DNA from: Candidatus Aminicenantaceae bacterium | GTDB taxonomy: Bacteria > Acidobacteriota > Aminicenantia > Aminicenantales > Aminicenantaceae | Reading direction: 5' to 3' | Assembly (NCBI GenBank): GCA_041862375.1 | Contig: JBGVTE010000141.1 | Location: 83,872-147,871, forward strand | Length of the DNA stretch: 64,000 nt | Notes under the pieces: generated by a model | Told to the model about the DNA's origin: nothing | Databases searched by the model: none | Seen by the model: only the letters and a program-made list of their open reading frames with translations | In this document: positions 1-52,292 of the stretch, piece after piece | Layout: every line of letters starts with the position of its first letter | Numbering within the stretch: the first letter of the stretch is position 1 | Program-made: the position numbers and the translations under genes

Positions 1-845
1 CCAGGAGTCTCCCAATCCCAAGGCCTTATGTTTGCTCCATCTATGCTTCTGTATCCAATTTCTGTGAGGATAATAGGTCTCTTCCATTTCTCATAAAAAG
101 CTTCGATTTCTTTAAGATAAGGCCACCAGGCAGCTAAAAGCTCGCTCAATTCGGGGTCTGTTTTATCGGTTAGGACAAAGTAGGAATCGATGCCGATATA
201 GTTGAGGTCATCCCAGAATTCAATCTGCAGATATTCCTGCCCCCAATTCGCTGCATAGCCCAGGGGACCTTCATAAATTTCTCTGACATTCTTAATGGTC
301 TCCCTCCATTCTAAGGTGTACTCTGATGTCGTCAATAACAGAAATTCGCAGCCGATGGAGAAGATTTCGACCCCTTCCTGTTGGGCGAGTTCTGCATAAG
401 CTTTTATCATATTTCGGTAGTTTTCAAACCAAATCTTCGTGTTCGTGGGCTGGAAAGTGCCGCGCCAGTCGCCGCTTTGAGCATCCACATGGGGCTTGAG
501 CATTACCTTTAGGCCGAGGCTATGAGCATACTGGATGGCATGCCTGATGCATTCATTCCTGGCAGTCCTCCCTTTATATTCAGGAAATATCTCGTTCGCA
601 TACCTGTCTTTTTGGTACAAGCTCGGCACCAGCTGAATCCATTCTGTGCAGGTGTTTTGGACGAGGATTTTGAGTGATTCATCTGAATGCAATGAGCAAT
701 ATTGATCAGACTGCCACGTCGGAAAGGCCATTCCTTTCTGGAAGGCAGAAGAATCTGAGGAGCTGGAGATGAGAATAAGAGTCGGAGTGATCATTAGTGT
801 CAAAAACAAAACAGCCCTGGATAATAGAGATAGTCTAGCATTCAT
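1..845 (-). CDS. Secreted TIM-barrel glycoside hydrolase, clan GH-A (GH5/GH113-like); N-terminal part only, C-terminus lies beyond the window start
   Basis: The reverse-strand translation begins at ATG (rc of 843-845) with a signal peptide (MNARLSLLSRAVLFLTLMITPTLIL...). It contains '...IWFENY...' and '...ILTEIGYRS...', matching the NE(acid/base) and TE-G(nucleophile) pattern of clan GH-A. It is absent from the ORF track only because it runs off the window edge. Confidence 0.6.
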   Translation of the reverse strand, partial: MNARLSLLSRAVLFLTLMITPTLILISSSSDSSAFQKGMAFPTWQSDQYCSLHSDESLKILVQNTCTEWIQLVPSLYQKDRYANEIFPEYKGRTARNECIRHAIQYAHSLGLKVMLKPHVDAQSGDWRGTFQPTNTKIWFENYRNMIKAYAELAQQEGVEIFSIGCEFLLLTTSEYTLEWRETIKNVREIYEGPLGYAANWGQEYLQIEFWDDLNYIGIDSYFVLTDKTDPELSELLAAWWPYLKEIEAFYEKWKRPIILTEIGYRSIDGANIRPWDWETP

Positions 846-1229
846 TTTTTTTCTCATTATTTGAATAGAGATTATACCTTTCTTTTTTGCCAAAGGCCAC
901 GATTTTATCATTTTTGAAGCTTTATCTGTCTACAGACAGTCTGGAGAAATTGATTCGCTGAGGAATTATTGATGTCAATTACCTCAAAAGGTACAGAAAA
1001 CACTCATTCGGATAAGAAAACTCACTCCCCAGAAAGGAATATTCATTGATGTTGGATAGAATTTTATCTTAAGAAGAAACAACAAGCCTAATCTTTACTG
1101 GTTTAAAATAATTCATGGTAGAATAATTATAGAAGCAAGCTGGTAGATAAAGTTTTCTCTTTGAAAATTCATTTTAAAACGATAAAATGAAATTTTAAAA
1201 GATTCAAAGATAGAAGAGGCGTTGAGAAA

Positions 1230-2276
1230 ATGATACCCTGGGTTGATATCAAATATAGATACAAGCAGTATGAGTACATGTGCCGTTCTGTCTACAAAGA
1301 TTTTAGACAGTTGATAAAAATTAATAAGAACGAATATAAAAAGTTTGAAGATAGCATTTTTATAAACAGGATTTACTTTGAGGTTACGAATATCTGTAAT
1401 GCCAAGTGTGTTTTTTGTGCATATCCTTCGGTTCAACATAAAAAAGGTGTAATGAAGTTCAAAACGTTCAAGAAGGCTGTTGATGAATATAGAAGGGCAG
1501 GAGGGAATATTATAAGTTTTACACCTACAGTTGGTGATCCCCTTCTCGATCCAGGACTTCTCGAGAAGATTCATTATGTAACAAGTCTCGAGGGCATAAA
1601 GAGAGTGTATTTTTACACTAACGGCATATTGCTCGGAAAGAATAAAATGTATGAGAAATTAATTGACTCTGGAGTTGATGTAATCCATTTGAGTATTCCT
1701 GAGACTAACAAAGAAATGTATGAAAAAATCTGCGGAGTAGAGATTTATGATACATTGATTCAAAATGTTCATAAATTGTTATCATATAACGAATCACAAG
1801 ATAATAAAGTTAAAATCAAGTTTGATTTCAGACCTGGTTCATACCCTAGTGAAGTCCTAAAGTCTCCTGATTTCATAGAGTACATTCAACCTTTTTTAGG
1901 TGATAGAGTTTGGTATGAATTTATGGTGGATTATGATAATTGGGGTGGTGTCGTTAAGAAGGAAGATCTAGTTGGAGTGATGAGGTTAAGAAGGAACCAG
2001 AAAGTGAAAATATTACCATGCATCAGAACTTTCGATGTCGCAATTTTATTTGATGGGAGTGTTCGTCTCTGTGCATGCAGGATAAAGTCCACAGAATTTG
2101 ATGATCTTGTTATCGGCAATATTCATAATGATTCTTTAGTGAACATATTTCATAGTGAAAAGACAAAGGAAATACGGCATAAATTTGTCAAGAAAGAATT
2201 ACCTGAAGTATGTAAAGATTGCGGTGTTTTTTTGCCTATAAAGAGAAAATTTTTAACAAAGAGATTACAATTTTAG
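1230..2276 (+). CDS. Radical SAM enzyme with a C-terminal twitch/partial-SPASM auxiliary Cys domain
   Basis: CX3CX2C motif 'TNICNAKCVFCAY' plus a 'GGNIISFTPTVGDPLLDP' glycine-rich SAM motif. The C-terminus has C-x11-G-x4-C-x-C ... C-x2-C (PCIRTFDVAILFDGSVRLCAC ... CKDCGVF). Confidence 0.8.
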   Translation: MIPWVDIKYRYKQYEYMCRSVYKDFRQLIKINKNEYKKFEDSIFINRIYFEVTNICNAKCVFCAYPSVQHKKGVMKFKTFKKAVDEYRRAGGNIISFTPTVGDPLLDPGLLEKIHYVTSLEGIKRVYFYTNGILLGKNKMYEKLIDSGVDVIHLSIPETNKEMYEKICGVEIYDTLIQNVHKLLSYNESQDNKVKIKFDFRPGSYPSEVLKSPDFIEYIQPFLGDRVWYEFMVDYDNWGGVVKKEDLVGVMRLRRNQKVKILPCIRTFDVAILFDGSVRLCACRIKSTEFDDLVIGNIHNDSLVNIFHSEKTKEIRHKFVKKELPEVCKDCGVFLPIKRKFLTKRLQF

Positions 2277-2476
2277 ATGATTCATAGGGCTTTTTCTCAG
2301 ATCATGCTCTCGTCCATGAACATGCAAATCCGATTATTATTTGTTAAATATCCTTGGAACAGTATTCCCTATATTCAGTCTTTGTGAATTTAAGAGGGAT
2401 AAGAATTTCTTTTTAGCCAAAGGCGACGAGTTTCTCATTATCTCTTTTCTATCTCCCTCTTGATTTAATGTCTCGT

Positions 2477-4522
2477 TTATTTTTTCTCCTTTAAATATTT
2501 CGCCAACCAGAGGTGAACCGTTTTCCACCAGAGCTTCGCATTTTGTGGTTTTTGAACGAAGTGGTATTCATCCGGAAAATAGAGCATCTTTGATGGGACA
2601 TTCTGCCGTTTAAGGCATGTAAAAAATTGAAATCCTTGAGCCACAGGAACGCGGAAATCATTCTGCCCATGGATGACTAAACAGGGTGTTTTAAAATATT
2701 CTACATAATTGCTCGGTGACCACTTTTCGTACATTTCTTTGTTAGTCCATGGCGTTCCTCTAAATTCCCATTCAGGAAACCAGAGTTCTTCAGTGGTTCC
2801 GTACATAGAACGAAGGTCGAAAACTCCAGCATGGGATATCAGGCAATTAAACCTGTTAGTGTGACCTTCAATCCAGTTAATCATGTACCCTCCATAAGAA
2901 GCTCCTGCTGCTGCCAGCCTATTTTCATCAATGAAATCATATTGCGAGAGAATATAGTCGAGACCCAGCATAATGTCCTTATAAGGCTTTCCACCCCAAT
3001 CGCCACTTATAGAATCAGTAAAAGACTGGCCGTATCCTGTACTGCCGTGAAAATTGATCATAGCAACAACGTAGCCTGGAGAGGCAAACATCTGGGCATT
3101 CCAGCGATAGTGGAAATTGTCTCCCCAAGCTCCCTGGGGGCCACCATGGATAAGCATGACGAGTGGGTATTTTTTGGATGAGTCAAAAGAGGGAGGTTTT
3201 ACCAGGAAACCGTGAACTTTATCTTTTTCTGCTCCCTCAAACCAAAATTCTTCTGCGGGATTCATCTCAAGTTTTGAAAGAAGCTCATGGTTTATATCTG
3301 TCAGTCTTTTGAGTTTTTTACTCCCCAAATCAAAGGAATACACATCGGCAGGAGAATTGATGGATTGTTTAAGGAAAATGATCTTTTTCCCATCAGGAGT
3401 AAGAGAAAGTGAGTTGAGAAAATTTCCTTCAAGAATTATTTCGATCTCTTTGTTTGCAACGTATATTTTGAACAAAATTCTTCTTCCTTTTTCTTGGGAA
3501 GTAAAATATATAGAAGCACTATCAGGTGACCAAAGAATTTCATCGACAGACAGATCTAAATTTGCTGTTAACTTTGTAATTTTCTTAGCTTCTCTATCAT
3601 AGAGCATTAGACTGTATTTATCAGCTTCAAATCCCGCCCTGGCCATCGCTCGGTAAGCAATGAAGCGGCCGGTGGGTGAATAGTGGGGGGAATTATCATT
3701 TGCCCTGTTAGTTGTGACTCGAGCAATATTTTCCTCGTTTATTGAGGTTGTGAAGAGATCGTTGTTTGTTCCGAGGGAAAGTTTTAACTCTGGGTCTGTG
3801 TTTCGGACAAAACAGATTTCCATTCCATCTGGAGAAAATGTATAATCGTGCCTGCTCCCCAAAGAAATGGGCGGACTGTCGTAGTCTCCAGATGCCACAT
3901 CAACTGCGTTTCCCCCCTTTTCGGGGATTACAAAGACATGGCTTCGTTTTCCGTCTTGCCAGTTATTCCAGTGGCGGAAAAGTAATGCTTCGAATACCTT
4001 GGCTTTTACTTTGCTTTTTTCTTTTTCGCTGTTTCTATTCCTGTTGCATTCATCGTCAGCACAATCAGGATAGACCGAAGAAGAAAATGCCAGATGTTTT
4101 CCAGAGGGCGACCAGATAACGCCAGAGGCTCCTGTGGAGATATCTGTCAAAGGATAAGCTTCACCGCCAAAGGGGGAGATGAGCCAGATTTGAGGATTTC
4201 CTTGTCTTGTGGAGATAAAAGCTATTTTTTTTCCATCAGGTGACCAGCGGGGATTGTAATCAGCTTTTTGACTCGAGGTTAGTATTCTTGATGTTCCCCC
4301 CGCGGCCGGGACAAGCCATATATCACTGTTGCTGCTGTTTTTTTCTGTATCCATAACAGTCACTACAAAGGCAATAAGGTCTCCATCGGGAGAAACCTGA
4401 GGGTCGCTCACTCTTTTTATTTGGATAAAATCATCAAAGACAATCGGCTCAGGTTGAGAATTAGCTGAGAGAAACAGACTTATGAGTAGGAAAAATGTAA
4501 AAAACAGGGATGATTTTTTCAT
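2477..4522 (-). CDS. S9-family serine peptidase (prolyl oligopeptidase / acylaminoacyl-peptidase type) with N-terminal TolB-like beta-propeller; secreted
   Basis: Signal peptide MKKSSLFFTFFLLISLFLSANS. Repeated 'WSPDGK(K/H)IAF' propeller motifs. C-terminal alpha/beta-hydrolase with 'GASYGGYM' nucleophile elbow (GxSxGG). Strong RBS (aaggagg) upstream. Confidence 0.85.
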   Translation of the reverse strand: MKKSSLFFTFFLLISLFLSANSQPEPIVFDDFIQIKRVSDPQVSPDGDLIAFVVTVMDTEKNSSNSDIWLVPAAGGTSRILTSSQKADYNPRWSPDGKKIAFISTRQGNPQIWLISPFGGEAYPLTDISTGASGVIWSPSGKHLAFSSSVYPDCADDECNRNRNSEKEKSKVKAKVFEALLFRHWNNWQDGKRSHVFVIPEKGGNAVDVASGDYDSPPISLGSRHDYTFSPDGMEICFVRNTDPELKLSLGTNNDLFTTSINEENIARVTTNRANDNSPHYSPTGRFIAYRAMARAGFEADKYSLMLYDREAKKITKLTANLDLSVDEILWSPDSASIYFTSQEKGRRILFKIYVANKEIEIILEGNFLNSLSLTPDGKKIIFLKQSINSPADVYSFDLGSKKLKRLTDINHELLSKLEMNPAEEFWFEGAEKDKVHGFLVKPPSFDSSKKYPLVMLIHGGPQGAWGDNFHYRWNAQMFASPGYVVAMINFHGSTGYGQSFTDSISGDWGGKPYKDIMLGLDYILSQYDFIDENRLAAAGASYGGYMINWIEGHTNRFNCLISHAGVFDLRSMYGTTEELWFPEWEFRGTPWTNKEMYEKWSPSNYVEYFKTPCLVIHGQNDFRVPVAQGFQFFTCLKRQNVPSKMLYFPDEYHFVQKPQNAKLWWKTVHLWLAKYLKEKK

Positions 4523-4685
4523 ATTTCCTCCTTTTTTTCGGATATAGTAAACAGTAATTAGTACAGCTTAAAGAGTCAAGTAGTATTTGGGATCAGGCGT
4601 TTTCATGAATCAATGTGTCGAAGCATGATGAAGAGTAGTGCTATTCACAACATTAAAGGCTTGATTCCGACGGCTTGAGCTAGCA

Positions 4686-4714
4686 TTGACAACCTCTTGC
4701 TTCGTTTCTATATT
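4686..4714 (+). promoter_or_regulatory. Putative sigma70-type promoter for the iPGM gene
   Basis: TTGACA (4686-4691), 17-nt spacer, TATATT (4709-4714); this precedes an aaaaaaggag RBS and the ATG at 4741. Confidence 0.3.
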
Positions 4715-4740
4715 ATAGGCTTATTAAAAAAGGAGCATGG

Positions 4741-6351
4741 ATGTTTAGTGAACGGATTCATAAATTAAATTCACGCTTGGTAGAAACGATGAAGAAGGCC
4801 TATCACGATGGCCAGGAAGATGAAGCTTTAGAACCCATGGTTAGAGTTGACGTGGGAGGGAATCCTCTTGGAAGACTTAAGAATGGAGACTATGTTATTT
4901 TTTATAATATCAGAGGAGAAAGAGAAGTCTATCTAACGCAAAGTTTCACTGATAAAGATTTCGACTATTTTCCTAGAAAAAAGAGCTTGAGCCTGAATTT
5001 CATCACTATGATTGAATACGATCCGCGTGTTGATGTAAAGGTTGCCTTTCCTTCTGAAAAAAAAATCAAGAATACTTTGGCTGAAGCCGTCTCAAATGCA
5101 GGATTACACCTTGTAAAAATTTCTGAATCAGAAAAGGCAATACATGTTGGCTTTTTCATGAACGGAAAGAACGAAGAAGTCTTTTCCCAAGAGGAGAGAG
5201 TAGTTGTTCCTTCTCCTCCTGAAGTTTCTTCCTATGCGGGTAATCCAGAAATGAGTGTTAAGGAAGTTACTCGAGAAATTTTTTCTAAGCTAAGAGACCC
5301 ATCTTGTCAGGCTATCATAGCTAATTTAGCTAATGTGGATGTGATTGGACATATTGAAAAAAAGCCTGCAGTTCTTAAAGCTGTGGAGGCAGTTGATTTT
5401 CATTTGGGTGAGATTATAAAAGAGTGCCAAGCTCAGAGAGCAACTCTTGTCGTAACGTCTGATCATGGGACAGTCGAAGAATGGCTCTATGATGATGGGA
5501 CTATTAACACCGGGCATACAAGAAATCCAGTCCCTTTCATTCTGGCTGATTTTTCTCCTGAAATGCAGGAGCCAGAATCTTTAGTTTTGAAGGAGAAAGG
5601 GGAGCTTGCTGATGTTGCCCCAACCGTTCTGGGATTGCTCGGAATAGATAAACCAGATGAGATGACGGGCGAAAGCTTACTTGAAACACTTCCTGACCAG
5701 AAGAAAAAGAGTGAAAAGCTACTACTTCTCATTCTCGATGGATGGGGGATGAGGGAAGAAAGCAAAGGTAACTTAATCGCAGAGGCAAAAACTCCCAATT
5801 TTGATGACCTGTGGAAACGATATCCACATTCCTTGCTCAAAGCTTCAGGAGAAGCAGTTGGCATGCCATCCCATACTGTAGGGAACTCTGAAGCTGGTCA
5901 TCTTCACCTGGGTACAGGAAGGCGTGTTGTTCTCGATCGAGTTAAGATTGATAACGCCATTCAGGATGGAAGTTTTTTTACTAATGAAGCGTTTCGTTGG
6001 GCGATGCAAGAAGCCAAACGGAACAATAAATCTCTTCATCTTCTGGGAATTGTCTCTCACTACAGCTCTCATGGTACTATCCGTCATCTTTTTGCCCTGC
6101 TTCGAATGGCGAAAAATATGGGATTAAAAGAAGTCTATGTTCATTCTTTGATAGGGAGAAGGGGAGAGAAGCCAGAAAGCGGCGCTCTATATGTAGAGAA
6201 AGTAGAGCAAATGTGTAAAGAATTATTGGTTGGCAGAGTAGTCACAGTTATGGGCAGATTCTGGGCTTTGGACAGGGAAGAGAACTGGGATCGAGTAGAG
6301 AAAGCTTACAGAGCCTTGGTATATGGAGAAGGAATTAGGGTGTACTCTTAG
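4741..6351 (+). CDS. gpmI: 2,3-bisphosphoglycerate-independent phosphoglycerate mutase, circularly permuted (C-terminal half first, N-terminal half second, in one ORF)
   Basis: Residues ~30-290 align with the C-terminal ~270-511 of canonical iPGM (YNIRGER, SEKAIHVGFF, ANVDVIGH, TSDHGT, TGHTRNPVP, LADVAPTVLGLLGIDKPDEMTGESLL). After a short KKKSEK linker, residues ~300-536 align with canonical 1-235 (LLLILDGWG, GNSEAGHLHLGTGR, HLFALL, GRR, WDRVEKAYRALVYGEG). Confidence 0.8.
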   Translation: MFSERIHKLNSRLVETMKKAYHDGQEDEALEPMVRVDVGGNPLGRLKNGDYVIFYNIRGEREVYLTQSFTDKDFDYFPRKKSLSLNFITMIEYDPRVDVKVAFPSEKKIKNTLAEAVSNAGLHLVKISESEKAIHVGFFMNGKNEEVFSQEERVVVPSPPEVSSYAGNPEMSVKEVTREIFSKLRDPSCQAIIANLANVDVIGHIEKKPAVLKAVEAVDFHLGEIIKECQAQRATLVVTSDHGTVEEWLYDDGTINTGHTRNPVPFILADFSPEMQEPESLVLKEKGELADVAPTVLGLLGIDKPDEMTGESLLETLPDQKKKSEKLLLLILDGWGMREESKGNLIAEAKTPNFDDLWKRYPHSLLKASGEAVGMPSHTVGNSEAGHLHLGTGRRVVLDRVKIDNAIQDGSFFTNEAFRWAMQEAKRNNKSLHLLGIVSHYSSHGTIRHLFALLRMAKNMGLKEVYVHSLIGRRGEKPESGALYVEKVEQMCKELLVGRVVTVMGRFWALDREENWDRVEKAYRALVYGEGIRVYS

Positions 6352-6440
6352 ACTGTATGGTATATACTAAGTGACCTGAAGCAGGGATTTAGTAGATACA
6401 AGTTAAGTGGGAAAGAGATATCAAAGATCAAGTAAAAATG

Positions 6441-6551
6441 GAAGCGTCTTTTTTTCCGTGATAAACGATAAACAAGCGAGCGTGCCTTAAAGCCGTATAC
6501 CTCCTTGCTAATGACTGCTTTAGCTCTCACCACGGAAAAAAAGATGATTAC
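6441..6551. repeat. Intergenic repeat element copy A (MITE/REP-like), with imperfect terminal inverted repeats
   Basis: The core 'aagcgagcgtgccttaaagccgtatac...atgactgctttagctc...cacggaaaaaaagatga' is shared with 32048-32124. It is flanked by the inverted pair 'tctttttttccgtg' (6447-6460) and 'cacggaaaaaaaga' (6530-6543). Confidence 0.5.
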
Positions 6552-17368: not shown

Positions 17369-18097
17369 ATGTTTAAAAATCTCGAAAATAGAGCCTATCA
17401 TCAGAATGAAAATCCAGTAGTCGCTGAGTTGATTGGCGCATCGAAAAAATTTAAAGCTGGCGACATCGAAATTATTGCCTTGCAGAAAACTGACTTGACC
17501 CTGCAAAAAGGTGAACTTCTGTTGATCATCGGGCCTTCTGGATCAGGAAAGACCACGCTTCTTTCTTTGATCGGATGCGTTATCTATCCGACTGAAGGAT
17601 GCGTCTGCATACATGGCATAAACACAAAAGACTTACATGATAAAGAGCTGGCCAGGCTACGTCGGAGGGAGATCGGGTTTGTCTTTCAATATTTTAACCT
17701 GATTGCGCCCCTAAACTCCGAAGAAAACATAATGGTGCCTCTTCATTTGAACCGTTTATCAAAGGAAGAAGTCAGGCAGAAAGTTCAGCAGTCACTGAAT
17801 CTTGTCGGGCTAGATCACAGGAAGAAATCCCTCCCCAAGCAGCTTTCCGGCGGTGAGCAGCAGCGTGTCGCAATCGCGCGGGCACTGGTGTCCGATCCCT
17901 CTATCATCCTCTGTGATGAGCCGACTGCAATGCTGGATGCTGAATCCCTGGAAATCGTGATGAAGGAACTACGCGGGCTGGCCGATGCTGGTAAAGCCGT
18001 GGCCGTGGTCACCCACGACCCAAGGCTGGAAAGCTTTGCCGACAAGATCATCCATTTAGAAAACGGCAGAGTCACTGAAGATAAAAGGAAAAAGTGA
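17369..18097 (+). CDS. ABC transporter ATP-binding protein (LolD/MacB-ATPase-like)
   Basis: GPSGSGKTT, LSGGEQQRVAIARAL, ILCDEPTAMLD. GC content (~50%) is well above the flanking DNA. Confidence 0.9.
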   Translation: MFKNLENRAYHQNENPVVAELIGASKKFKAGDIEIIALQKTDLTLQKGELLLIIGPSGSGKTTLLSLIGCVIYPTEGCVCIHGINTKDLHDKELARLRRREIGFVFQYFNLIAPLNSEENIMVPLHLNRLSKEEVRQKVQQSLNLVGLDHRKKSLPKQLSGGEQQRVAIARALVSDPSIILCDEPTAMLDAESLEIVMKELRGLADAGKAVAVVTHDPRLESFADKIIHLENGRVTEDKRKK

Positions 18098-19098
18098 AAG
18101 CCATGAGAATTCGTGACTATAACTCAACTTGCAAGAGAAGGTCGAAGAAACCAATAATAGGAATCGTCAGCTGGTTCCTAGCCATTGTGGTGGCATTAAA
18201 CCTTACTGGGTGCCAGAAAGAAAAACCGGCCTCACAAGAAAGCCAACCCGCCATGGACTTTACTCCAAAACAGGTGGTGGGTCTTGGTCGTATCGAACCC
18301 GAGATGAAAATACTATCTCTCAACAGTGAGACCTCCGGAATCGTCACCAGGATAATCTTCCAACCCGGAAGTTTTGTAGCCAAGGGAGAGATTATTGTCG
18401 AACTTTCGAACGCGATAGAAAAAGCACGGCTGGAACAGGCGGAGGCCAAAGTCAAGTCTCAGATCTCCCGGATAGAAGCGGCAAGGGCGGAACTGGCTTC
18501 CATCAAGATCAAAACGGAAAACGCAAAGATAACCTTCGAGCGGGCCAAAACCCTCTACGAGCAGGATGCCGAAACGAAATTTAACTACGACCGGGCCAAA
18601 ACCGAATACGAATCGCTTGTTGAAGATGTCAAAAGGCTGGAAGCCGGCGTTGTCGCAGCCCAGAATCTGCTGAAGCAGTGCCAGGCCGACCACAGGCTGG
18701 CAAAAGCGGAATATGATCGGAAATTCATCAAGGCTCTGACTGAAGGAAGGCTCCTATCTCTGGACATTACCCTTGGGTCATTGGTCTCTCCTGATAAGCC
18801 CTTTGGAACTTTCGCACCGAAGAGTCCGCTGGTTGCCCGCTGTGAAATTGATGAGATGTTTGCCGCAGAGGTGAGTCTGGGACAGAAGGCATACGTGAGA
18901 AACCCGGGTATGACCGATACTTTGGCCTGGGGGCAGGTCTCCTTTGTAGGGCCCTATCTGAGAAAGAAGTCAATCTTCTCTGACGAGGTCGGTGACCTTG
19001 AGGACAGACGTGTCCGCGAAATTTGGATCAACTTGGATCCGGATGCAAAGCTACTTTATGGAACCCGGGTGGAGTGTGTGGTCATTCTTAAAAGGTAA
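18094..19098 (+). CDS. HlyD-family periplasmic adaptor (membrane fusion protein)
   Basis: N-terminal TM/lipoprotein-like anchor, long coiled-coil (ARLEQAEAKVKSQISRIEAARAEL...), beta-barrel C-terminus; 4-nt overlap with the upstream ATPase. Confidence 0.8.
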   Translation: MKAMRIRDYNSTCKRRSKKPIIGIVSWFLAIVVALNLTGCQKEKPASQESQPAMDFTPKQVVGLGRIEPEMKILSLNSETSGIVTRIIFQPGSFVAKGEIIVELSNAIEKARLEQAEAKVKSQISRIEAARAELASIKIKTENAKITFERAKTLYEQDAETKFNYDRAKTEYESLVEDVKRLEAGVVAAQNLLKQCQADHRLAKAEYDRKFIKALTEGRLLSLDITLGSLVSPDKPFGTFAPKSPLVARCEIDEMFAAEVSLGQKAYVRNPGMTDTLAWGQVSFVGPYLRKKSIFSDEVGDLEDRRVREIWINLDPDAKLLYGTRVECVVILKR

Positions 19099-19111
19099 TC
19101 AAGCTGGAATT

Positions 19112-20233
19112 ATGCTGCGTTTTGCTCTTCGCTTCATCAGCTACGACAAGCCTAAATCGATCGGTGTCATCTTGGGCATCGTAATCTCGATTTTCCTGGT
19201 CGGCCAACAGACAGGAATCTTCCTCTTCCTGACTGGAGCCATGTCATCTCTGGTCAACAACACAAAAGCCGACATCTGGGTGGTCGATAACAGGACGACA
19301 AACGTCAACGCCCTGGGGCCAATCGATATCCGAATCGGCTATCAGATCGAATCCCTTCCCGGTGTTAAAAAGGCCTATCCCCTGGTAATTGCAGGTGGTT
19401 CGGCTAAGTTCCGGGACGGGAAATCGGCTCCTGTCCAGATTATAGGCTCCCTGCCTCCCAGTTTCCGAGGAGGGCCCTGGAATATCGTCAAAGGCAGTCT
19501 TGATAACCTCATCGATGAGGGTGCAGTTTCGTCTGATGTCTTCGATAAGAAAAACCTGAATAACGCAGATCTGGGGACCCAGTTCGAGATCAACGGCAAG
19601 CGCGTCATAATAAGTGTCCAAACTAGGGGAGTGAGGAGCTTCGGTGGTATCTTTATTTTCACGACAGATTCAAGAGCCCGTGAGTTGGGAAAGATTCCCA
19701 AAAACAAGGTCAGTGCCTTCCTAATCGATGTGGAGGAAGGAGCGGATCCGCTAGCAATTCGTGACTACATCAACAGGACATTGTTCGGGGTGCGGGCTTG
19801 GACGAAAAAGGAATTTTCGAGGGCGACAGTCTCGACCATCCTCTCAACCAGCGGCATCGCCTTCTCAATCGGCACACTCATTATCTTTGCTGCTATATCG
19901 GGGATGATCATCATCGGTTTGACCATGTATTCAGCGGCTGTGGACAGGCTCCGGGACTACGGGACACTCAAGGCGATCGGAGCTGACAACACTTACATAC
20001 GAAACCTGATCTTGACTCAGGCTATCTTCTTTGCGCTCACAGGCTATGGGATAGCCATTATCCTCATCCAAGGATTTCAGAGAGGGATTGCTAACTCAGG
20101 CGTATTATTTAACTATAGTACAGCAATTAAAATCGCTTTCTTCATTGTTACTATCCTTATCTCCCTTGGTGGAGCAGCGTTTGCTATGCACCGTATAGCC
20201 AGGCTAGAGCCTGCTAGTGTATTCAGAGCATGA
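19112..20233 (+). CDS. FtsX/MacB-type ABC transporter permease
   Basis: Begins MLRFALRFISYDKPKSIGVILGIVISIFLVG (typical FtsX N-terminus). The ORF-track start at 18992 would overlap the MFP gene by 100 nt, so the ATG at 19112 is preferred. Confidence 0.8.
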   Translation: MLRFALRFISYDKPKSIGVILGIVISIFLVGQQTGIFLFLTGAMSSLVNNTKADIWVVDNRTTNVNALGPIDIRIGYQIESLPGVKKAYPLVIAGGSAKFRDGKSAPVQIIGSLPPSFRGGPWNIVKGSLDNLIDEGAVSSDVFDKKNLNNADLGTQFEINGKRVIISVQTRGVRSFGGIFIFTTDSRARELGKIPKNKVSAFLIDVEEGADPLAIRDYINRTLFGVRAWTKKEFSRATVSTILSTSGIAFSIGTLIIFAAISGMIIIGLTMYSAAVDRLRDYGTLKAIGADNTYIRNLILTQAIFFALTGYGIAIILIQGFQRGIANSGVLFNYSTAIKIAFFIVTILISLGGAAFAMHRIARLEPASVFRA

Positions 20234-22621: not shown

Positions 22622-24607
22622 TTAAAATACAGGTTTCCCGATCATCTCTTTTGGTTGCTCAATCCCGAATATAGAAAGGATTGTAGGAGTCAAATCATAA
22701 AGAGCAGGATATTCAGCCTTTACTTTTCTGTTAATAAAGAGAATTCCGGGTATAACACTTGAGTCCATGCAGTGATCTCCGCTCCATTTTTCAGTGTTGT
22801 CTTCAATGACATTTAGCGGAATTCGGCCGAGAGGTGTACTCCATGAAGCACGGTAACCACGGTTGTAGCCGACAATAATATCAGGGGCCTGCTCAACATA
22901 ACGGCCTTTGTAGATATCTTTTGCAGCGTAGGCTTTTAAAATCACCGCTTCACCTGTTTTCGGGTCCTTGGCCTTTTCCAGTTTTTGAATAATTTCTCTG
23001 ACCAATGCTTCCTTTTCTCCACCAGGTTTCACGATTCCTTCTCTTTCCCTCCCTTCTTGATTAATATAGAGACTGTTTATTCCATAAGCGTAAGCCTTTG
23101 TTTTTGACCAATTTGTGTTTAAGAAGAATTCTTCTCGGCCCTGTCTCCATCTATTGATGAGATTAAGGTATCCATTTTCTTTGAGCCATGTGTTTAAATT
23201 GAATGAGCGGCGGAATGGAGTAAAGCCATGGTCTGACATGACCATCAGGATAGTGTTTTTATCTGTCTTTTCCATTGCCTTTGCCAGAAATTTATCCATT
23301 TCAAGATAGATATTCTCAATTACTTTCCCGTATTTAGATGCAAGAGTGGAGTCGTACATAGGATGTTCCTTGTCTATAAGGCGCCAGAACATATGCTGCC
23401 GTTGGTCGGTGCTTGAGACATAGTAAAAAAGAAGTCCGGAGTCGAACCTCGATAATTCATGGTCAAACATCTCTTCTCTTTCCTTCAGCACAAAGTCGTC
23501 TATTTTAAGGAATTCATGTTCATCTAAAACACCGTGATCAAGTGCTTTAGTGTCAGCTGGTAAACCTTTAGTAAAGAAAGGCCCGAATTTCTTTTCGAGC
23601 TCCTCCGAGTAGCTTTTGGGTGTGGAAATGGGAAGAGCTGCATTTCCTGGGTCTATATTAATCGGAGAAACGTAAAGCTTAAAATGAGGACGGATTTGTT
23701 TAAGGTAAAACTGGCAAATTCCGCTTACGCTCTGGGTAGGAATCATAGAGAATCGAACTTTCTTCCACTCGCTCCATTCTCCTTCCTTAAGTATGAATTC
23801 GTTGTTTTGAATTAGAATCTTGGCTACAAGATTTACGGGATCGATAAAAACTTTGAAATCGATCGAGGATTCAGGCCGATCTTTTTTAAATGTATTCCGA
23901 GGACCGGGAAGCTTATCTTCAACTATATTATCAATCACAAATACTTCATGGATTCTTCCTCCTCCTATATCTTCCTTTAATTCTGTTGGCTCTGTTGTGT
24001 AGTAGTTAAAAATACCGTATGTGCCAAGGATATCCGGAGTGTTCATTCCGGAGATTGTTCTTTGCTTTGTGTGAACTGGAGGGTAATTGGATGGGATTTT
24101 AAAGATAGTAGCGGGGATATCGTATTCTTCAAGAATCTTCCAGAAGGCTTTTCCCTGACGGAGCTGTTTAACCTCTCCTCCGGAGAGGGGGAAGACATAA
24201 TCTCCGATTGTTATCGTCTTTTTTGCTTCTTCAGTTTGAGAAGAGGAAAACACAGGGAGATAATTTTCTGGATCTCGATGAATGAAGTCGAAAATTGCAT
24301 GGCCGCCGGGGTTAGTTCCTGTTATGAAATTTGACCAGGCTACCGGACTCTGAGGCGGATTGCTTGTGCGAAGTGCTTTAAAACTTCCTTCGCTTCTCAG
24401 GCGCTGGAAATGGGGAAGTTTTCCTTGGTCCATTAATATTTGGACAAGGTGAGGATCCATTCCGTCAAGCCCGAGAATTATTACTTTTTTTGATGTTTCC
24501 CTTTTTCCAAAGGCTCTTAAAAGGCGCTCTGAAGTTGTCCCTAAGGTAAAAATTGAACCTGCACTTAAGCTCAGTTTGATGAATTCTCTCCTGTTCAATT
24601 TATTCAT
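22622..24607 (-). CDS. Alkaline-phosphatase-superfamily enzyme (type I phosphodiesterase / nucleotide pyrophosphatase-like), Tat-secreted
   Basis: Tat signal MNKLNRREFIKLSLSAGS; metal-site motifs 'ILGLDGMDP' and 'MSDHGF'. Confidence 0.85.
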   Translation of the reverse strand: MNKLNRREFIKLSLSAGSIFTLGTTSERLLRAFGKRETSKKVIILGLDGMDPHLVQILMDQGKLPHFQRLRSEGSFKALRTSNPPQSPVAWSNFITGTNPGGHAIFDFIHRDPENYLPVFSSSQTEEAKKTITIGDYVFPLSGGEVKQLRQGKAFWKILEEYDIPATIFKIPSNYPPVHTKQRTISGMNTPDILGTYGIFNYYTTEPTELKEDIGGGRIHEVFVIDNIVEDKLPGPRNTFKKDRPESSIDFKVFIDPVNLVAKILIQNNEFILKEGEWSEWKKVRFSMIPTQSVSGICQFYLKQIRPHFKLYVSPINIDPGNAALPISTPKSYSEELEKKFGPFFTKGLPADTKALDHGVLDEHEFLKIDDFVLKEREEMFDHELSRFDSGLLFYYVSSTDQRQHMFWRLIDKEHPMYDSTLASKYGKVIENIYLEMDKFLAKAMEKTDKNTILMVMSDHGFTPFRRSFNLNTWLKENGYLNLINRWRQGREEFFLNTNWSKTKAYAYGINSLYINQEGREREGIVKPGGEKEALVREIIQKLEKAKDPKTGEAVILKAYAAKDIYKGRYVEQAPDIIVGYNRGYRASWSTPLGRIPLNVIEDNTEKWSGDHCMDSSVIPGILFINRKVKAEYPALYDLTPTILSIFGIEQPKEMIGKPVF

Positions 24608-26744
24608 TTTTTCTTTCCTTTTTGTCTTTGAAAAAATACCGGGGATTTATCAGGGAATTTCCGTCCATGTGTTGAGGGGCTTGAAAGCCGAATAACTCAA
24701 GAGCAGTGGGAGCTATGTCAATCAGGGATGGGGATTTGATTTTAATTTTCTTGGTACAGAAGAATACTCCTGGAACTATTCGAGGGTCTATGCAGTGGTC
24801 TCCACTCCAGGCTTTTGTATTATCATCGAAAGCACGATTATTTACTTTCCCTGTAACTGAGTCCCAGGAAATACGGTACCCCTCGTTGTATCCGATGATA
24901 AGGTCAGGGCAATGTTCCTTATAAGGACCTGGTGGAAGCTCATCCCTGTCATAGACTTTGTTAATTGCCACCTCTCCATGCATTTCATCCTTGAGGCCAC
25001 TCAATTTGCTGATAAGCTCTTCTTTTAAAGCCTGCGTTTCCTCACCAGGATTGACTATTCCCTTTGATTCTCTTCCTTTCTGGTTTATGTACAGACCACC
25101 CAGACCCAGTGCGTAAGCTTTGGTTCTTTCCCAGTCAACGTCTTTAAACCACTCATCGCTCACATCCTTTTCCTCGTTTAAAGATAAGTAACCTTTGATA
25201 TGAAGCCATGAGTTAAGGTTGACTCCTCGCCGGAACGATTTAAAACCGTGGTCAGACATGATGATTAGTAGGCTTTTAGTGTCAATTTCATTCCTGATTC
25301 TTCCTACCATTTCATCCATTTTTATGTAGAGGTCCTCAATTACTTTGTGATTCATCGTGGCTTGTCTGTCTTTCAGGGAAGGATTCTTGATGTCAAGATA
25401 TCGCCAGAACATATGCTGGATGCTGTCGGTTGTCTCAAAGACGCAGATAACAAGTCCCTTTTTTGTTTTCTCCATGGCATTGAAGAGCATATTTTCCCAT
25501 TCCTTATGATTGGCGTAAGTCAATTCCAGGAAAGCTTTTTCGCTGAGTATGTTTTCATTGAGAGCCCAAGTATCGTTAGCTTCGCCCAGTGTTATGAAGC
25601 TCCCCAGGAGTTTTGCCAGGTATATCGAGTAGATAAATGGATGGGAAATGGGAAGAGCCGGCTTTTCAGGGTCGATATTGAGTGGACTTAGATACATTTC
25701 AAAGTGAGGAGATATTTGAGAAATATAAAATTTGCAGATTGCTCTTATTTTCATGCCCCAACCAGGGCAGAAAGTGAGCTTCACCCAGTCAGAGAAGGTT
25801 TCTTTTTTCAAGATAAATTTTTTCCCAGATACTTCAACAAGTGCCTCCTCTTTTTCTCTATCTATAGTTATTTTAAGCGGAAGGCAAAGTTCTTCTTCTT
25901 TTTTTAAGAGAGAATTATCAGGGCCTGATATGTAAGTTTCAATCTCGTTTCCTTCGATTTTAACCGGAATTGTTATTCCTTCCTCCAGTTTCCTTAGATT
26001 TTCTTTGTCTGAAGTATAAAATGAGAAGGTTCCTTGACTTCCCTTGAGGTCAGGAGCACACATGCCAGAGAGGAGGTGGCCTGAGAATTTTTCAGGCGGA
26101 AATGTAATAGGAACTCTTAAGATAGTGCTAAAAATTCCTTTTTCTCCCAGGATTTTCCAGAAAGGAATGCTTCTGCGTAGTCCCTTGATTTCAGGTTTTG
26201 AAAGAGGAATGCTATATTTTCCGAAAGAAAGGACTCTCTTGGGCTTGCCGATTCTGGCAGAGGAGAGGTCAGGCAGATATGTTTTGGGATCTCGGCTGAG
26301 AAAATCAAAAATATTGTGTTTTGAAGGATTAGAACCTGTCATGAAAGAAGACCAGGCCACAGGAGATATAGCGGGAGTTGTCGTTTTAAGAGGAGTATAG
26401 GTTCCTTCGTCTTTAATCTTGGAGAAATTGGGAAGTTTACCTTCCGACATATATTTCTCCACAAGGGATGGTTCTAGGCCGTCGAGCCCGACTATTACCA
26501 GCTTGCTGATTTTACTCTTTTTGTAGGCTTTTTGCCCTCTTATTGTTCGCAAGAGAAAACGAAAGGGCCAGGATATAAAAGAGAAAATAGCCAGAAAAAA
26601 AGTTATAAAAAGAATGAGGAATGAAGAGAGGAAGGCAAAACCAGCTCCAGGGCCTATGTAAGCTTCAAGAGGAATGACAGCAGAGATTAAGAAAAGCATA
26701 AAAAGGCCAAATTTTCTATTCTTTCTAGAGATTTTTATCATCAT
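24600..26744 (-). CDS. Alkaline-phosphatase-superfamily enzyme paralog, membrane-anchored
   Basis: N-terminal TM segments, then 'VIVGLDGLEPSL' and 'MSDHGF'; overlaps the flanking paralogs by a few nt (operon). Confidence 0.85.
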   Translation of the reverse strand: MMIKISRKNRKFGLFMLFLISAVIPLEAYIGPGAGFAFLSSFLILFITFFLAIFSFISWPFRFLLRTIRGQKAYKKSKISKLVIVGLDGLEPSLVEKYMSEGKLPNFSKIKDEGTYTPLKTTTPAISPVAWSSFMTGSNPSKHNIFDFLSRDPKTYLPDLSSARIGKPKRVLSFGKYSIPLSKPEIKGLRRSIPFWKILGEKGIFSTILRVPITFPPEKFSGHLLSGMCAPDLKGSQGTFSFYTSDKENLRKLEEGITIPVKIEGNEIETYISGPDNSLLKKEEELCLPLKITIDREKEEALVEVSGKKFILKKETFSDWVKLTFCPGWGMKIRAICKFYISQISPHFEMYLSPLNIDPEKPALPISHPFIYSIYLAKLLGSFITLGEANDTWALNENILSEKAFLELTYANHKEWENMLFNAMEKTKKGLVICVFETTDSIQHMFWRYLDIKNPSLKDRQATMNHKVIEDLYIKMDEMVGRIRNEIDTKSLLIIMSDHGFKSFRRGVNLNSWLHIKGYLSLNEEKDVSDEWFKDVDWERTKAYALGLGGLYINQKGRESKGIVNPGEETQALKEELISKLSGLKDEMHGEVAINKVYDRDELPPGPYKEHCPDLIIGYNEGYRISWDSVTGKVNNRAFDDNTKAWSGDHCIDPRIVPGVFFCTKKIKIKSPSLIDIAPTALELFGFQAPQHMDGNSLINPRYFFKDKKERKNE

Positions 26745-26745
26745 T

Positions 26746-28038
26746 TTAGAAGCCCATTAGTTTTATCTCTGCTAAATCGGAGATCGAGAGATCGGGGCCG
26801 TAGTTTTTATCAGCCCAGAAAAAAGCATCGTCCCATGTGTGCATGCCTTGGAGATTGGTTCTGCCAAAAACTTCTTTTTTCTTGACAGAGCCTTTCATAT
26901 CGAATCCATATTCAGAGAGAACGAGTAAATCTGGTCCCTCGGAGAGATATGGGCCAGAATAAATCTCTTCAGCATCAAAAACTCTGCTGACTACTTTTTT
27001 ACCTTTGTATTCCAATTTTTCCAGTTCTTTTTTGATTTCCTCCTTTAATGCTTTTTTCTCAGGATTATTAACTGTACCTTTAGGAAACTTTTCTTTCAAA
27101 TTGAGGTAAATACGGTTTGGATCCAGGGCGAAAGCTTTACTTTGCTGAGATATTTCAGTCAGACTCTCAGGGGAAGAACTCTCGAATTTTAAATACCCCT
27201 TATCCACTAGCCAGGCATTAAGATAAACTTCCTGTTCAATTTCTGTGAAACCGTGGTCCGAAAGGAGGTAAAGTCCTTCATCGTCTTTATTTATATTTCT
27301 GAAAGAAGTAACTATATCGCCTATAATTTGGTCAATTTTTCGATAATAATCAAGGAAATTCTGATGGTAGATGTGGTTCTTATCTTTGTAGGCAGGCCAG
27401 AGGAAGTGGTGGAGCCTGTCAGTTCCTGTAATCACTAATTCAAAATAGTCCCAGTCTTCTTTCCAGAGAAAATTCCATGCTTTCTTTCTGCCCTCAAGAG
27501 TTTTTTCCAGCTCATTCCAGAGAAAGTCGTGATTTTCCCTGGATTTAAGGGTATCGATGTCTATCTGATAGCCCATTTTTTCAAGAGGATCTCTGTATTC
27601 AGAAGGGAAAACAGCTTTATCCAGGTCGAGAGCTACAAAACCTGATATCAATACTCCGTTAATTTTTCTGGCTGGATATGTCGAAGGTTGGTTGATGATT
27701 ATACATCTTAGATTCTTTTTTCCAAGAACATCCCAGAATGTTTCTTTTTTTAGGTCGAGAAAATTGGGGAAGCGAAGCTCGTAAGAGTTTTTTTTGAGGT
27801 CTGTAAAGCCGAAGATTCCGTGAGTAGCGGGATTTGTTCCTGTCATGAAATTTGTCCAACTTACAGCAGAGATCTCTGGAAGGCTAGCTTTTATTTTGTG
27901 AAGGTGGCCTGAATTGATAAGTTCTGCTGTGGCCGGCATTATCCCTTTTTGAGCGAGTTCCCGGAGCAGAGAGTAGGGGACACCATCTAATCCTATGACA
28001 CAAACACGGTTTTTGTGTTTCTTCTTAAGGAAAACCAT
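26746..28038 (-). CDS. Alkaline-phosphatase-superfamily enzyme paralog, cytoplasmic (no signal)
   Basis: 'VCVIGLDGVPYSL', 'LSDHGF'; 430 aa. Confidence 0.85.
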   Translation of the reverse strand: MVFLKKKHKNRVCVIGLDGVPYSLLRELAQKGIMPATAELINSGHLHKIKASLPEISAVSWTNFMTGTNPATHGIFGFTDLKKNSYELRFPNFLDLKKETFWDVLGKKNLRCIIINQPSTYPARKINGVLISGFVALDLDKAVFPSEYRDPLEKMGYQIDIDTLKSRENHDFLWNELEKTLEGRKKAWNFLWKEDWDYFELVITGTDRLHHFLWPAYKDKNHIYHQNFLDYYRKIDQIIGDIVTSFRNINKDDEGLYLLSDHGFTEIEQEVYLNAWLVDKGYLKFESSSPESLTEISQQSKAFALDPNRIYLNLKEKFPKGTVNNPEKKALKEEIKKELEKLEYKGKKVVSRVFDAEEIYSGPYLSEGPDLLVLSEYGFDMKGSVKKKEVFGRTNLQGMHTWDDAFFWADKNYGPDLSISDLAEIKLMGF

Positions 28039-37587: not shown

Positions 37588-38934
37588 TTATTTATAAAGC
37601 TTCTCACGGGATATCTCTATTGCTAGGTTGAACTCGCCAGCAAGAACTTGTGCAGCCACTGAAGCAGCAAACTCTCTGGCAGTTTTTATGCCCATAATCC
37701 TCAGTGCTTCGCGACCACCAGGGGAGATAAATCCTTCTCGAGATGATACAGTCCCCACTTCTATATTAGGAAGTTCCACTCCATAAATAAGATCTCCTTT
37801 TTCAGCTCTGGCATATATGCTTTGGAAAGAAGAAACAAGGCAACTTTGGGGATTGACTTTGGCTGCTTTGTAAATAGCCGGTATTATTTCTCCTCCCATA
37901 CCTGAATAGAATTGACAGCCTAATTTTTGTGCGCCTGTGCAGTCTAACTCAACAAAAGAGAGGAGCTTCTCTGCATCAATTCCTATGAACTGTTCAATGT
38001 CCTGCATAGGAACCTTAACCTGAGCAGATGCATATCTTCCCCGTTTATTTCGAGGGCTTGGCTTTAGATCGCCATCATACCCTTGTGCTATTACGCTTAA
38101 CTCATATTCTATGCCAATTTTTTGAAACTGCACCTCGATCAGCTTTTTAGCATACCCCACAGCGCCACTTATCGCGCCATGTCCCCTGAAGTTTACAAAG
38201 TCAGAGGCAAAATCTACATAGAGAATAAAGCCCCTTTGGTTTTCGACTTCTAAAAATTCCACAAAGCTGATTCGGCCTCCAAATTCTGACATCTTTTTAT
38301 TCATCCCGATTTTAAGCTCTGGCAGGAGTGCTTCAATTGTGCTGAGTGCTTTTTTTCGTAATTGTTCTTTTTTAAATATATATCCAAGGCACCGGGCCGC
38401 TCTACCGAACTCTGAGACTTTAACCTCAGCTCCACCAAAAGTGTTGATTATGTAACATCCCCTCGTTACCCCGATAGGTCCTAATCCTGTTCCGTAAATA
38501 AGAAGATTTGTGAACTCTTTCTCGACATCACCCTTCACTTTTATTCTTCCAGCATAGGAGTAATAATCTTCGCTTCCTCCGATGTAGTTGTTGACAAGAG
38601 GGGAGTATTTACCAAGGGATTTCAGCGGAGAGCCGCAGATTGTGCACGTAAGCTTGCTATCCAATGCATCGAGTTCCCAGAAAATGTTATCTCTTTCGCA
38701 CTGGTAATGGATCTTATAAGGTTTCTCAGATATGCGGATGAATTCGAACTTCTCTCCTGTTTCCTTTTCAATAAATTTCTGTCTGCATAATGCAGCGATT
38801 GAATAATTATCAGGAGGAAGTATTCCGATATTTGTCGCTATTTCTTCTTCTACTTTCCAGGGAGGGAGTTTTCCCAATTTCAATTGTTCAACACACTCTT
38901 GAATGGCGATTTTTTCTTTATAGCTATTTTTCAT
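37588..38934 (-). CDS. HMG-CoA reductase-like domain protein, divergent (Zn-ribbon-like N-terminal region; lacks canonical GTVGG and C-terminal catalytic-His flap)
   Basis: C-terminus 'EVGTVSSREGFISPGGREALRIMGIKTAREFAASVAAQVLAGEFNLAIEISREKLYK*' aligns with HMGR 'E(I/V)GTVGG...LAGELSL.AALAAGHLV'. The protein ends where the His-containing flap would begin. Confidence 0.55.
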   Translation of the reverse strand: MKNSYKEKIAIQECVEQLKLGKLPPWKVEEEIATNIGILPPDNYSIAALCRQKFIEKETGEKFEFIRISEKPYKIHYQCERDNIFWELDALDSKLTCTICGSPLKSLGKYSPLVNNYIGGSEDYYSYAGRIKVKGDVEKEFTNLLIYGTGLGPIGVTRGCYIINTFGGAEVKVSEFGRAARCLGYIFKKEQLRKKALSTIEALLPELKIGMNKKMSEFGGRISFVEFLEVENQRGFILYVDFASDFVNFRGHGAISGAVGYAKKLIEVQFQKIGIEYELSVIAQGYDGDLKPSPRNKRGRYASAQVKVPMQDIEQFIGIDAEKLLSFVELDCTGAQKLGCQFYSGMGGEIIPAIYKAAKVNPQSCLVSSFQSIYARAEKGDLIYGVELPNIEVGTVSSREGFISPGGREALRIMGIKTAREFAASVAAQVLAGEFNLAIEISREKLYK

Positions 38935-43848: not shown

Positions 43849-44211
43849 ATGGCAGCACAAAGTGATAGTCATCAAAGCAATCAAAATTCTCAAAAGAGAG
43901 CGCTTGATAAGAAGTTGGACGCTATCGGCTGGGGATTGTTTCTTATCGTGATTGGTTGTCTGTGGCTTGTACCCGAAAAGACATTTCCGGAAAGTACCTG
44001 GCTTATTGGGACAGGGATTATCATACTGGTTCTCATGGCAGTACGCTATCTCTACAGTATCAAGATCAGCGGGTTCTGGCTTGTCCTGGGCATAATTGTC
44101 CTGGCCTTTGGGATAAGCGATGTCTTTGGTCTGAACATTCCAGTCTTTCCCATATTGATTATCATCTTTGGTGCAAGTATTATCCTCAAGCCGTTGTTAA
44201 AGAAATCGTAG
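43849..44211 (+). CDS. Small integral membrane protein (3-4 TM)
   Basis: RBS aaggaaggag then ATG at 43849; hydrophobic helices (GWGLFLIVIGCLWLV..., GIIILVLMAV..., FWLVLGIIVLAFGI..., VFPILIIIFGASIIL). Confidence 0.55.
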   Translation: MAAQSDSHQSNQNSQKRALDKKLDAIGWGLFLIVIGCLWLVPEKTFPESTWLIGTGIIILVLMAVRYLYSIKISGFWLVLGIIVLAFGISDVFGLNIPVFPILIIIFGASIILKPLLKKS

Positions 44212-44223
44212 GGAGGAGGGGAT

Positions 44224-50081: not shown

Positions 50082-50082
50082 T

Positions 50083-51264: not shown

Positions 51265-51272
51265 GGCTCCAT

Positions 51273-52292
<1,020 letters not shown>

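Follow-up and report, generated by a model that had tools for sequence, protein, structure and literature searches.

We found that a gene in a 64,000-nucleotide stretch of DNA from a Candidatus Aminicenantaceae bacterium (contig JBGVTE010000141.1; hereafter, the window) encodes a cofactor-independent phosphoglycerate mutase (iPGM) family protein whose chain is circularly permuted: the two halves of the canonical sequence follow each other in swapped order within a single open reading frame (ORF). We hold the permutation to be practically certain. Our literature search on permuted iPGM, on the phosphoglycerate mutase of Aminicenantes and on a link between iPGM and sulfotransferases returned nothing relevant, and the initial annotation, made from the letters of the window, knew of no natural permutation in this family either. 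The permuted iPGM is therefore undescribed in the literature that we found, and its sequences are public under generic or automatic names.

A circularly permuted iPGM

The initial annotation had proposed a 536-amino acid (aa) ORF at 4741-6351 with the iPGM halves exchanged. Both proposals hold: the ORF lies on the + strand and starts with ATG, and the exchange is recovered by each of the comparisons below. The gene, its upstream signals and its segments are the following, with canonical residue numbers in brackets.

4686-4714, + strand: sigma-70-like promoter candidate, TTGACA-17 nt-TATATT; a consensus match only, at 11/12 positions, with the start codon 27 nt downstream
4730-4735, + strand: Shine-Dalgarno-like AAGGAG, read off the sequence 5 nt 5' of the ATG
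4741-6351, + strand: circularly permuted iPGM-family protein; ATG-started complete ORF, 536 aa plus stop
4741-5058, + strand: aa 1-106, second half of the transferase domain (~218-310), from the 1ejj alignment and motif table; holds R58 and R61 (R261, R264) within the clade-specific motif YNIRGEREV
5059-5682, + strand: aa 107-314, C-terminal part of the alkaline-phosphatase-like phosphatase domain (~311-509), from Pfam and the 1ejj alignment; K132/H135 (K336/H339), D200/H204 (D403/H407), D241/H242 (D444/H445), H259 (H462)
5683-5715, + strand: aa 315-325 (326 if the following K is counted), 11-residue linker ETLPDQKKKSE(K), by which the former C-terminus runs on into the former N-terminus
5716-5931, + strand: aa 326-397, N-terminal part of the phosphatase domain (5-76), from the 1ejj alignment; D333 (D12, metal ligand), S383 (S62, phospho-acceptor), H387 (H66)
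5932-6348, + strand: aa 398-536, first half of the transferase domain (77-211), from the Pfam match; H444 (H123) in SHYSSHG, R474 (R153) and G475 (D154) in IGRRGEKPESG, R506 and R512 (R185, R191)

The limits of the transferase domain, 77-310, are what we take them to be in the Bacillus stearothermophilus iPGM structure. Compared by phmmer with that enzyme (1ejj; E = 4.3e-120), the window protein aligns in two out-of-order stretches, residues 326-532 with chain residues 5-211 and residues 15-314 with chain residues 218-509. Both iPGM Pfam domains are present with scores far over the cut-offs (PF06415, 193.9 bits; PF01676, 192.4 bits), profile positions 1-129 of iPGM_N lying at aa 403-531 and positions 62-252 of Metalloenzyme at aa 103-304. 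Positions 212-504 of TIGR01307 map to aa 12-314, and the score of 491.5 bits for this model (cut-off 330.65) is reached only by adding two non-colinear stretches. When the window is searched with a canonical iPGM by tblastn, two swapped segments are returned and nothing else.

Canonical iPGM consists of a phosphatase domain and a transferase domain connected through two hinge peptides (PMC5382265). In the window protein the linear order is transferase-B, phosphatase-B, linker, phosphatase-A, transferase-A instead of the canonical one, and the nesting is inverted: the phosphatase domain forms one contiguous insert in a split transferase domain, and both inter-domain hinges are kept. The break falls at canonical residues ~212-217, where a loop connects two helices within the transferase domain. 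The new termini thus lie inside that domain, as first supposed, whereas the residue map offered at the time (~270-511 followed by 1-235) was off by tens of residues, with the break placed at ~235/270. Structure prediction agrees with a retained fold: an AlphaFold2 model built with 91 family sequences reaches a predicted local distance difference test (pLDDT) score of 88.6 and a predicted template modelling (pTM) score of 0.85 (an initial run with 21 close homologues gave a pLDDT of 74), adopts the iPGM fold, and finds its best structural matches among iPGM structures.

Such a protein may have originated by in-frame tandem duplication or fusion of gpmI, both outer ends being lost afterwards. 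Among over-long database matches, of which we checked 12 from the 150 best representatives, there were no duplication intermediates; P0122, P0184 and others considered as such are ordinary iPGMs with extensions (P and L numbers denote proteins and loci of our survey).

The permuted order could also be thought an artefact, that is, a mis-assembled or decayed tandem duplication of gpmI in which two partial copies read through by chance, and the only support for this is the general point that tandem duplicates can mis-assemble. Against it, L116, a Logan assembly generated independently from run SRR29975710, shows 100% identity with window positions 262-6526 (6265 bp), which include the whole gene and the junction, and the identical protein (P0001) is present in an NCBI metagenome-assembled genome (MAG) of Candidatus Aminicenantaceae. 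Furthermore, the order recurs in over 240 protein clusters and 100 loci, drawn from many studies, with the same break point in every permuted sequence; hundreds of homologues are colinear with the window gene, each as a single ORF; the linker varies in sequence and length (5-17 residues) yet is always in frame; and the fold is predicted with confidence. In the flanks of the permuted gene, tblastn of canonical iPGM against the window detected no leftover fragments. Because the independent assembly and the homologues show the same junction, a mis-join is very unlikely; we rejected it, together with a frameshifted tandem duplicate or a fusion of partial genes, and give an artefact a negligible probability. 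The intact catalytic core and a conservation pattern indicative of strong purifying selection argue that the protein is functional and the gene no pseudogene, as the initial annotation had maintained.

A multi-phylum family with a common break point

The permuted form is not peculiar to the source organism but constitutes a large multi-phylum family already in databases. Aminicenantes and Anaerolineae contribute clusters, as do MAGs that carry the labels of other phyla, with at least 120 clusters each of the Aminicenantes type and the Anaerolineae type. The best 120 clusters, all Aminicenantes-type, are 65-74% identical to the window protein over 97-100% of the query; since each is covered in a single local alignment, they share its permuted order. 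When a Chloroflexia sequence was used as the seed of a second protein search, at least another 120 clusters were added, again in the same order. In species-representative genomes we found 20 loci, each a single colinear tblastn segment; three are Aminicenantes-like (64-67% identity), and the rest (51-57%) belong to MAGs deposited under the labels Anaerolineae/Chloroflexia, Thermodesulfobacteriota, Desulfobacterales, Syntrophobacteria, Polyangiaceae and Chitinispirillaceae. A scan of metagenomes produced 490 confirmed matches, of which 80 were kept; these were chosen by similarity to L004, so that the sample is biased, and many of the contigs are short. Finally, in an exhaustive search of 1.84 billion cluster representatives, 16 of the 150 best matches align in a single stretch (permuted) and 134 in multiple stretches (canonical). 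The search for the same permutation in relatives, suggested as a check by the initial annotation, found hundreds of homologues that share it. The gene is single-copy at every locus examined, and more than 100 alignment columns, including every catalytic residue, are invariant in the family.

Some deposited labels deserve caution. L001-L003 are deposited as 'uncultured Eubacteriales', yet their permuted gene and synteny are clearly of the Aminicenantes type, and the labels Polyangiaceae (L004) and Chitinispirillaceae (L005) look doubtful because the genes group with Chloroflexi-type sequences. The proteins themselves are named 'alkaline phosphatase family protein', 'sulfatase-like', 'hypothetical' or iPGM in databases.

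To place the family, permuted sequences were rotated to canonical order and aligned with 123 canonical representatives, and neighbour-joining trees were built with 50 bootstraps. In 50/50 replicates, 33 of the 37 permuted sequences group together as a single clade, which is set apart by a long stem branch. Its 'main' part contains the window gene with the Aminicenantes-type and Anaerolineae-type sequences; its 'deep' part, at ~40% identity, contains Candidatus Desulfofervidus, Limnochordia and others. The remaining four permuted sequences (P0123, P0126, P0148 and P0174) are placed among canonical enzymes. Identity between P0126 and the window protein is only ~42%; the sequences nearest to P0126 are five permuted clusters at 75-85% identity, followed exclusively by canonical 510-aa iPGMs at 47-53%. 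Monophyly of all permuted sequences is seen in 1/50 bootstraps. Because the permuted group with canonical motifs (P0126 and relatives) stands apart, nearest to canonical iPGMs, the permutation probably arose more than once: the sequences suggest at least two independent events at the same loop, a question that neighbour-joining does not settle.

Comparison with known enzymes sets these groups apart. The window protein resembles canonical GpmI/GpmM (B. stearothermophilus 1EJJ, Trypanosoma brucei 3NVL, Caenorhabditis elegans 5KGL) in its PF01676 and PF06415 domains, ~40% identity in both halves, metal ligands, serine nucleophile and most substrate contacts; it differs from them in its rotation and inverted nesting, in several active-site motifs, and in relatives that lack a glycolytic gene context. 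The small canonical-motif group (P0126, P0422-P0426; also P0148 and P0123) has the break point, a similar linker length and the two-domain content in common with it, but keeps SD.GVHS, DGRD, FNFR.DRAR and NPDMVGHTG, and probably represents a separate permutation event. The deep relatives (P0127, P0149 of Candidatus Desulfofervidus, P0226 of Limnochordia, P0156, P0188 and others) share the permutation and eight derived columns, including xxSSHG and RGERE; unlike the window clade they keep DGR, and they occupy specialised gene contexts, namely HAD-X-apgM-PRK kinase, an ABC importer, or a 2401-aa PPDK_N protein. Archaeal-type iPGM (apgM) and phosphopentomutase (DeoB) have an alkaline-phosphatase-like metallo-core, a Ser/Thr nucleophile and a cap domain as well, but their caps are unrelated to iPGM_N and the similarity is weak, confined to the phosphatase core (~30-40 bits).

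Two kinds of member are unusual. P0174 (5027 aa, on a 15.6-kb Logan contig) is a giant repetitive multi-domain protein with a complete permuted iPGM domain at residues 3855-4372. In the Candidatus Desulfofervidus-type contigs L025-L028, the permuted homologue overlaps the end of the gene for the 2401-aa PPDK_N/P-loop protein by 44 nt.

Catalytic residues and proposed activity

The serine nucleophile and the metal ligands (D333, S383, D200, H204, D241, H242 and H259) do not vary among 91 family members, in agreement with the catalytic residues named as retained in the initial annotation. In Bacillus iPGM, nine residues contact 2-phosphoglycerate (2PG) or 3-phosphoglycerate (3PG): S62, H123, R153, D154, R185, R191, R261, R264 and K336 (PMC3886921). 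Eight are retained here as S383, H444, R474, R506, R512, R58, R61 and K132, and the ninth, D154, is replaced by G475.

We take it as all but certain that the protein is a working phosphoryl-transfer enzyme dependent on metal and serine, and as probable that it is a phosphomutase. Its mechanism would be that of iPGM: two metal ions would be bound by D333, D200, H204, D241, H242 and H259 and would activate S383, which would take the phosphoryl group off the substrate; the transferase-domain residues H444, R474, R506, R512, R58, R61 and K132 would grip the substrate, and the phosphoryl group would be handed back to a neighbouring hydroxyl. Our best single guess, which we give slightly better than an even chance, is that the substrate is still 3PG/2PG and that the window gene would be the housekeeping mutase of Aminicenantes.

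Aminicenantes are inferred to be glycolytic by published reconstructions (PMC4897734). The window itself carries gap-pgk-tpiA-secG at 48916-52274 (- strand) and, as noted initially for the cluster, no enolase; nor did we find apgM, cofactor-dependent phosphoglycerate mutase (dPGM) or a second iPGM within its 64 kb. A housekeeping character is further suggested by the gene's own promoter-like site and ribosome-binding site, by its very strong conservation and its fixed synteny in Aminicenantes (an S9 peptidase, then the permuted gene, then two ABC systems) and by the Anaerolineae neighbours ribF, truB, rbfA, infB and nusA. Synteny is conserved within lineages only; none was found across phyla. 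In 14 Anaerolineae-like loci, an Aconitase X gene is convergent to the permuted gene.

Among related permuted genes, a neighbouring gap, pgk, tpiA or pgi was found for P0126 only. This gene, permuted and with canonical motifs, overlaps pgi by 4 nt and is translationally coupled to it, so that the architecture as such appears compatible with glycolysis.

A remodelled pocket and a sulfation context

Several lines of evidence weigh against a glycolytic mutase, and the first concerns the pocket. The initial annotation saw only the DGRD Asp as substituted; in fact D151G, G152R, D154G, G121S, V122S, S124G, D263E, A265E and the loss of T341 are all fixed in the window clade. D154 is Gly in 25/25 main-clade sequences (Ser or Gly in the deep clade) and Asp in 119/123 canonical representatives; D151 and G152 are G and R, respectively, in 25/25, each position being canonical (Asp, Gly) in 122/123. 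V122 is Ser in all main and deep sequences (Val in 106/123), D263 is Glu in all of the main clade and in 7/8 deep sequences (Asp in 119/123), and T341 is lost in the main clade (Thr in 118/123). The positions affected by the fixed replacements are 86-99% conserved in the 123 canonical representatives. At the level of motifs, DGRD has become GRRG(E), DGGVHS has become HYSSHG and RxDRA has become RGERE. Eight derived columns are common to the main and deep parts of the clade, and the four outliers have the canonical state there. No variation is seen in the motifs that took their place (S[HF]YSSHG, GRRGE.P.SG, RGERE, DHGTVE.W), and the pocket is therefore remodelled under selection rather than decaying; the net effect is a loss of two acidic side chains and the gain of one Arg beside the substrate. 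The long stem branch of the clade also counts against a glycolytic mutase, as do the automatic annotations: the window protein scores 386.9 bits against the equivalog model NF003897 (cut-off 862), and the NCBI pipeline does not call these proteins gpmI, the window protein being an 'alkaline phosphatase family protein'.

The second line of evidence is gene context. In ~104 main-clade loci, we found no glycolytic neighbours. Instead, unbiased neighbour clustering detects sulfate-activation and sulfotransfer genes adjoining the permuted gene, in gene orders that differ by locus:

L005 and L037: cysD, cysN/C, permuted gene, sulfotransferase; L005 adds a 99-aa ORF and then a TauE/SafE permease
L004: sulfotransferase, permuted gene, HAL2-type 3'(2'),5'-bisphosphate nucleotidase (TIGR01330, 284 bits, cut-off 267)
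L038: SLC13-like transporter, PHP protein (best NCBIfam match, 3',5'-nucleoside bisphosphate phosphatase), adenosine 5'-phosphosulfate (APS) kinase, ATP sulfurylase, permuted gene, sulfotransferase, FAA-hydrolase-family protein
L010: sat/cysC, permuted gene, flippase (wzx), pyruvyl transferase
L087 and L107: divergent APS kinase near the permuted gene
L078 and L036: sulfotransferase near the permuted gene

In the gene tree, this context of 3'-phosphoadenosine 5'-phosphosulfate (PAPS) synthesis, sulfotransferase and 3'-phosphoadenosine 5'-phosphate (pAp) phosphatase is spread over at least four subclades. By a rough expectation that we did not compute, a gene present once per genome would fall within ±3.5 kb by chance at well under one locus in 100. 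Sulfation cassettes embedding a permuted homologue were seen at L004, L005, L010, L036, L037, L038, L050, L078, L087 and L107; they combine cysD/cysN/cysC or sat/cysC, a Sulfotransfer_3 enzyme and a HAL2- or PHP-type pAp phosphatase, in some cases with an SLC13-like transporter or TauE/SafE permease.

Phosphoesterases of the His_Phos_1, PHP and NPP types are also recurrent neighbours. PHP proteins adjoin the gene at L015, L019, L065 and L069-L071 as well. A His_Phos_1 protein is encoded on the same strand 21 nt downstream in L066, L068, L072, L080 and L086, all within one subclade (in L086 the called ORF overlaps the permuted gene), and is closest to the 'putative phosphomutase' family TIGR03848 (MSMEG_4193; 186 bits, cut-off 204). 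An NPP-type phosphodiesterase is a same-strand neighbour in five loci. Finally, the deep-clade gene P0127 (L023, 66-6874) stands in an operon-like row of HAD hydrolase, permuted homologue, apgM-type mutase, PRK-family kinase, LacI regulator and KduI, with two different mutase-like genes side by side; for a redundant glycolytic mutase such surroundings would be difficult to explain. Apart from this case, no apgM, Escherichia coli-type GpmA or canonical iPGM was found near any related locus or in the window. A second iPGM-like match in L011, considered as a second mutase or apgM, was rejected: it is a 597-aa membrane protein of the alkaline phosphatase superfamily.

We may therefore hypothesize, tentatively, that the clade is a neofunctionalised paralogue that keeps iPGM chemistry but acts, as a mutase or a dedicated phosphatase, on another and probably more anionic C3-acid or nucleotide phosphoester, such as a sulfated phosphoglycerate or pAp/PAPS, possibly in connection with PAPS-dependent sulfation; another enzyme would then be the glycolytic mutase. 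The fixed replacements at D151, G152, D154 and the DGGVHS loop, the derived columns around the active site with the long stem, the gene's operon-like position, in several gene orders, with sulfate activation on one side and a sulfotransferase on the other, and the row around P0127 all favour this explanation. However, 8/9 substrate contacts are retained, and the sulfation context occurs in only ~12 of ~104 loci, the 80 metagenome loci being biased toward L004. No such context was found at Aminicenantes-type loci, and no sulfation genes lie within the 64-kb window. Most loci have unrelated or housekeeping neighbours, and true gpmI genes, too, are often found in unrelated gene contexts. That the large permuted clade is no glycolytic mutase but a new enzyme, serving pAp metabolism or the sulfation of small molecules, is a reading that we consider less likely than not. 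Should sulfation be involved, which we regard as a possibility short of even, the sulfotransferase might sulfate the free hydroxyl of 3PG and the permuted enzyme remove or shift the phosphate to give sulfoglycerate. Such a route would parallel the glucosyl- and mannosyl-3-phosphoglycerate synthase/phosphatase pathways.

An enzyme that is a phosphatase only, having lost the transfer step and resolving its phosphoserine intermediate by water (for example on 3PG, 2PG or phosphoserine-like compounds), seems unlikely. The substrate-contacting D154 is Gly, the alkaline-phosphatase core is intact and the relatives' neighbours are often phosphoesterases; in the unrelated dPGM superfamily, moreover, members annotated as mutases have repeatedly proved to be phosphatases, which counts for this explanation. 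On the other hand, the whole transferase domain (five Arg, Lys, His) is conserved as strongly as the phosphatase domain, which would not be expected if substrate re-orientation were no longer needed.

A 3PG/2PG mutase remains our preferred assignment for the window gene. The functional reading of the initial annotation stands in part: the catalytic core is intact, while the glycolytic role is called into question by the relatives' neighbourhoods, which point to PAPS/pAp metabolism and phosphoesterases.

Other features of the window

The window holds three tandem PF01663 (type I phosphodiesterase/nucleotide pyrophosphatase) paralogues of 661, 714 and 430 aa at 22622-28038 (- strand), followed at 28074-30194 (- strand) by an ADP-forming acyl-CoA synthetase gene. 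In L110 an NPP gene lies 1.6 kb upstream of the permuted gene, and the 661-aa paralogue matches it at 44% identity over nearly the whole of its own length. L079 and L083 have NPP genes directly downstream of the permuted gene, and these share ~25-26% identity with the 430-aa paralogue. Two radical SAM/SPASM-domain genes lie at 1230-2276 (+ strand) and 43956-45335 (+ strand); the former is two genes 5' of the permuted gene, an arrangement also found in the independent assembly L116. A three-gene MacB-like module at 17369-20233 (+ strand) encodes an ABC ATPase, a HlyD-like adaptor (GTG start at 18094) and an FtsX/MacB permease; its G+C content of ~50%, compared with ~40% elsewhere in the window, suggests a possible island gained by horizontal transfer. 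At 37588-38934 (- strand), a 448-aa ORF has only a weak match to HMG-CoA reductase (52.6 bits).

Significance

In parasites and bacteria iPGM is a drug target, and it serves as a standard example of a hinge enzyme with two domains. The natural permutant shows that it tolerates inverted domain nesting, and the probable repeated use of one surface loop offers a clean test case, made by nature, of folding order, of hinge mechanics and of how duplication and truncation lead to a permutation. Because annotation is inconsistent in a family this abundant in Aminicenantes and Anaerolineae, metabolic reconstructions for these uncultured groups may leave out a step of glycolysis or assign one in error. 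Should a new substrate indeed lie behind the altered pocket and the repeated association with sulfation cassettes, an unrecognised pathway would come to light; the circular permutation would in that case signal the emergence of a new function out of a central glycolytic enzyme, one that gene transfer would have carried across phyla.

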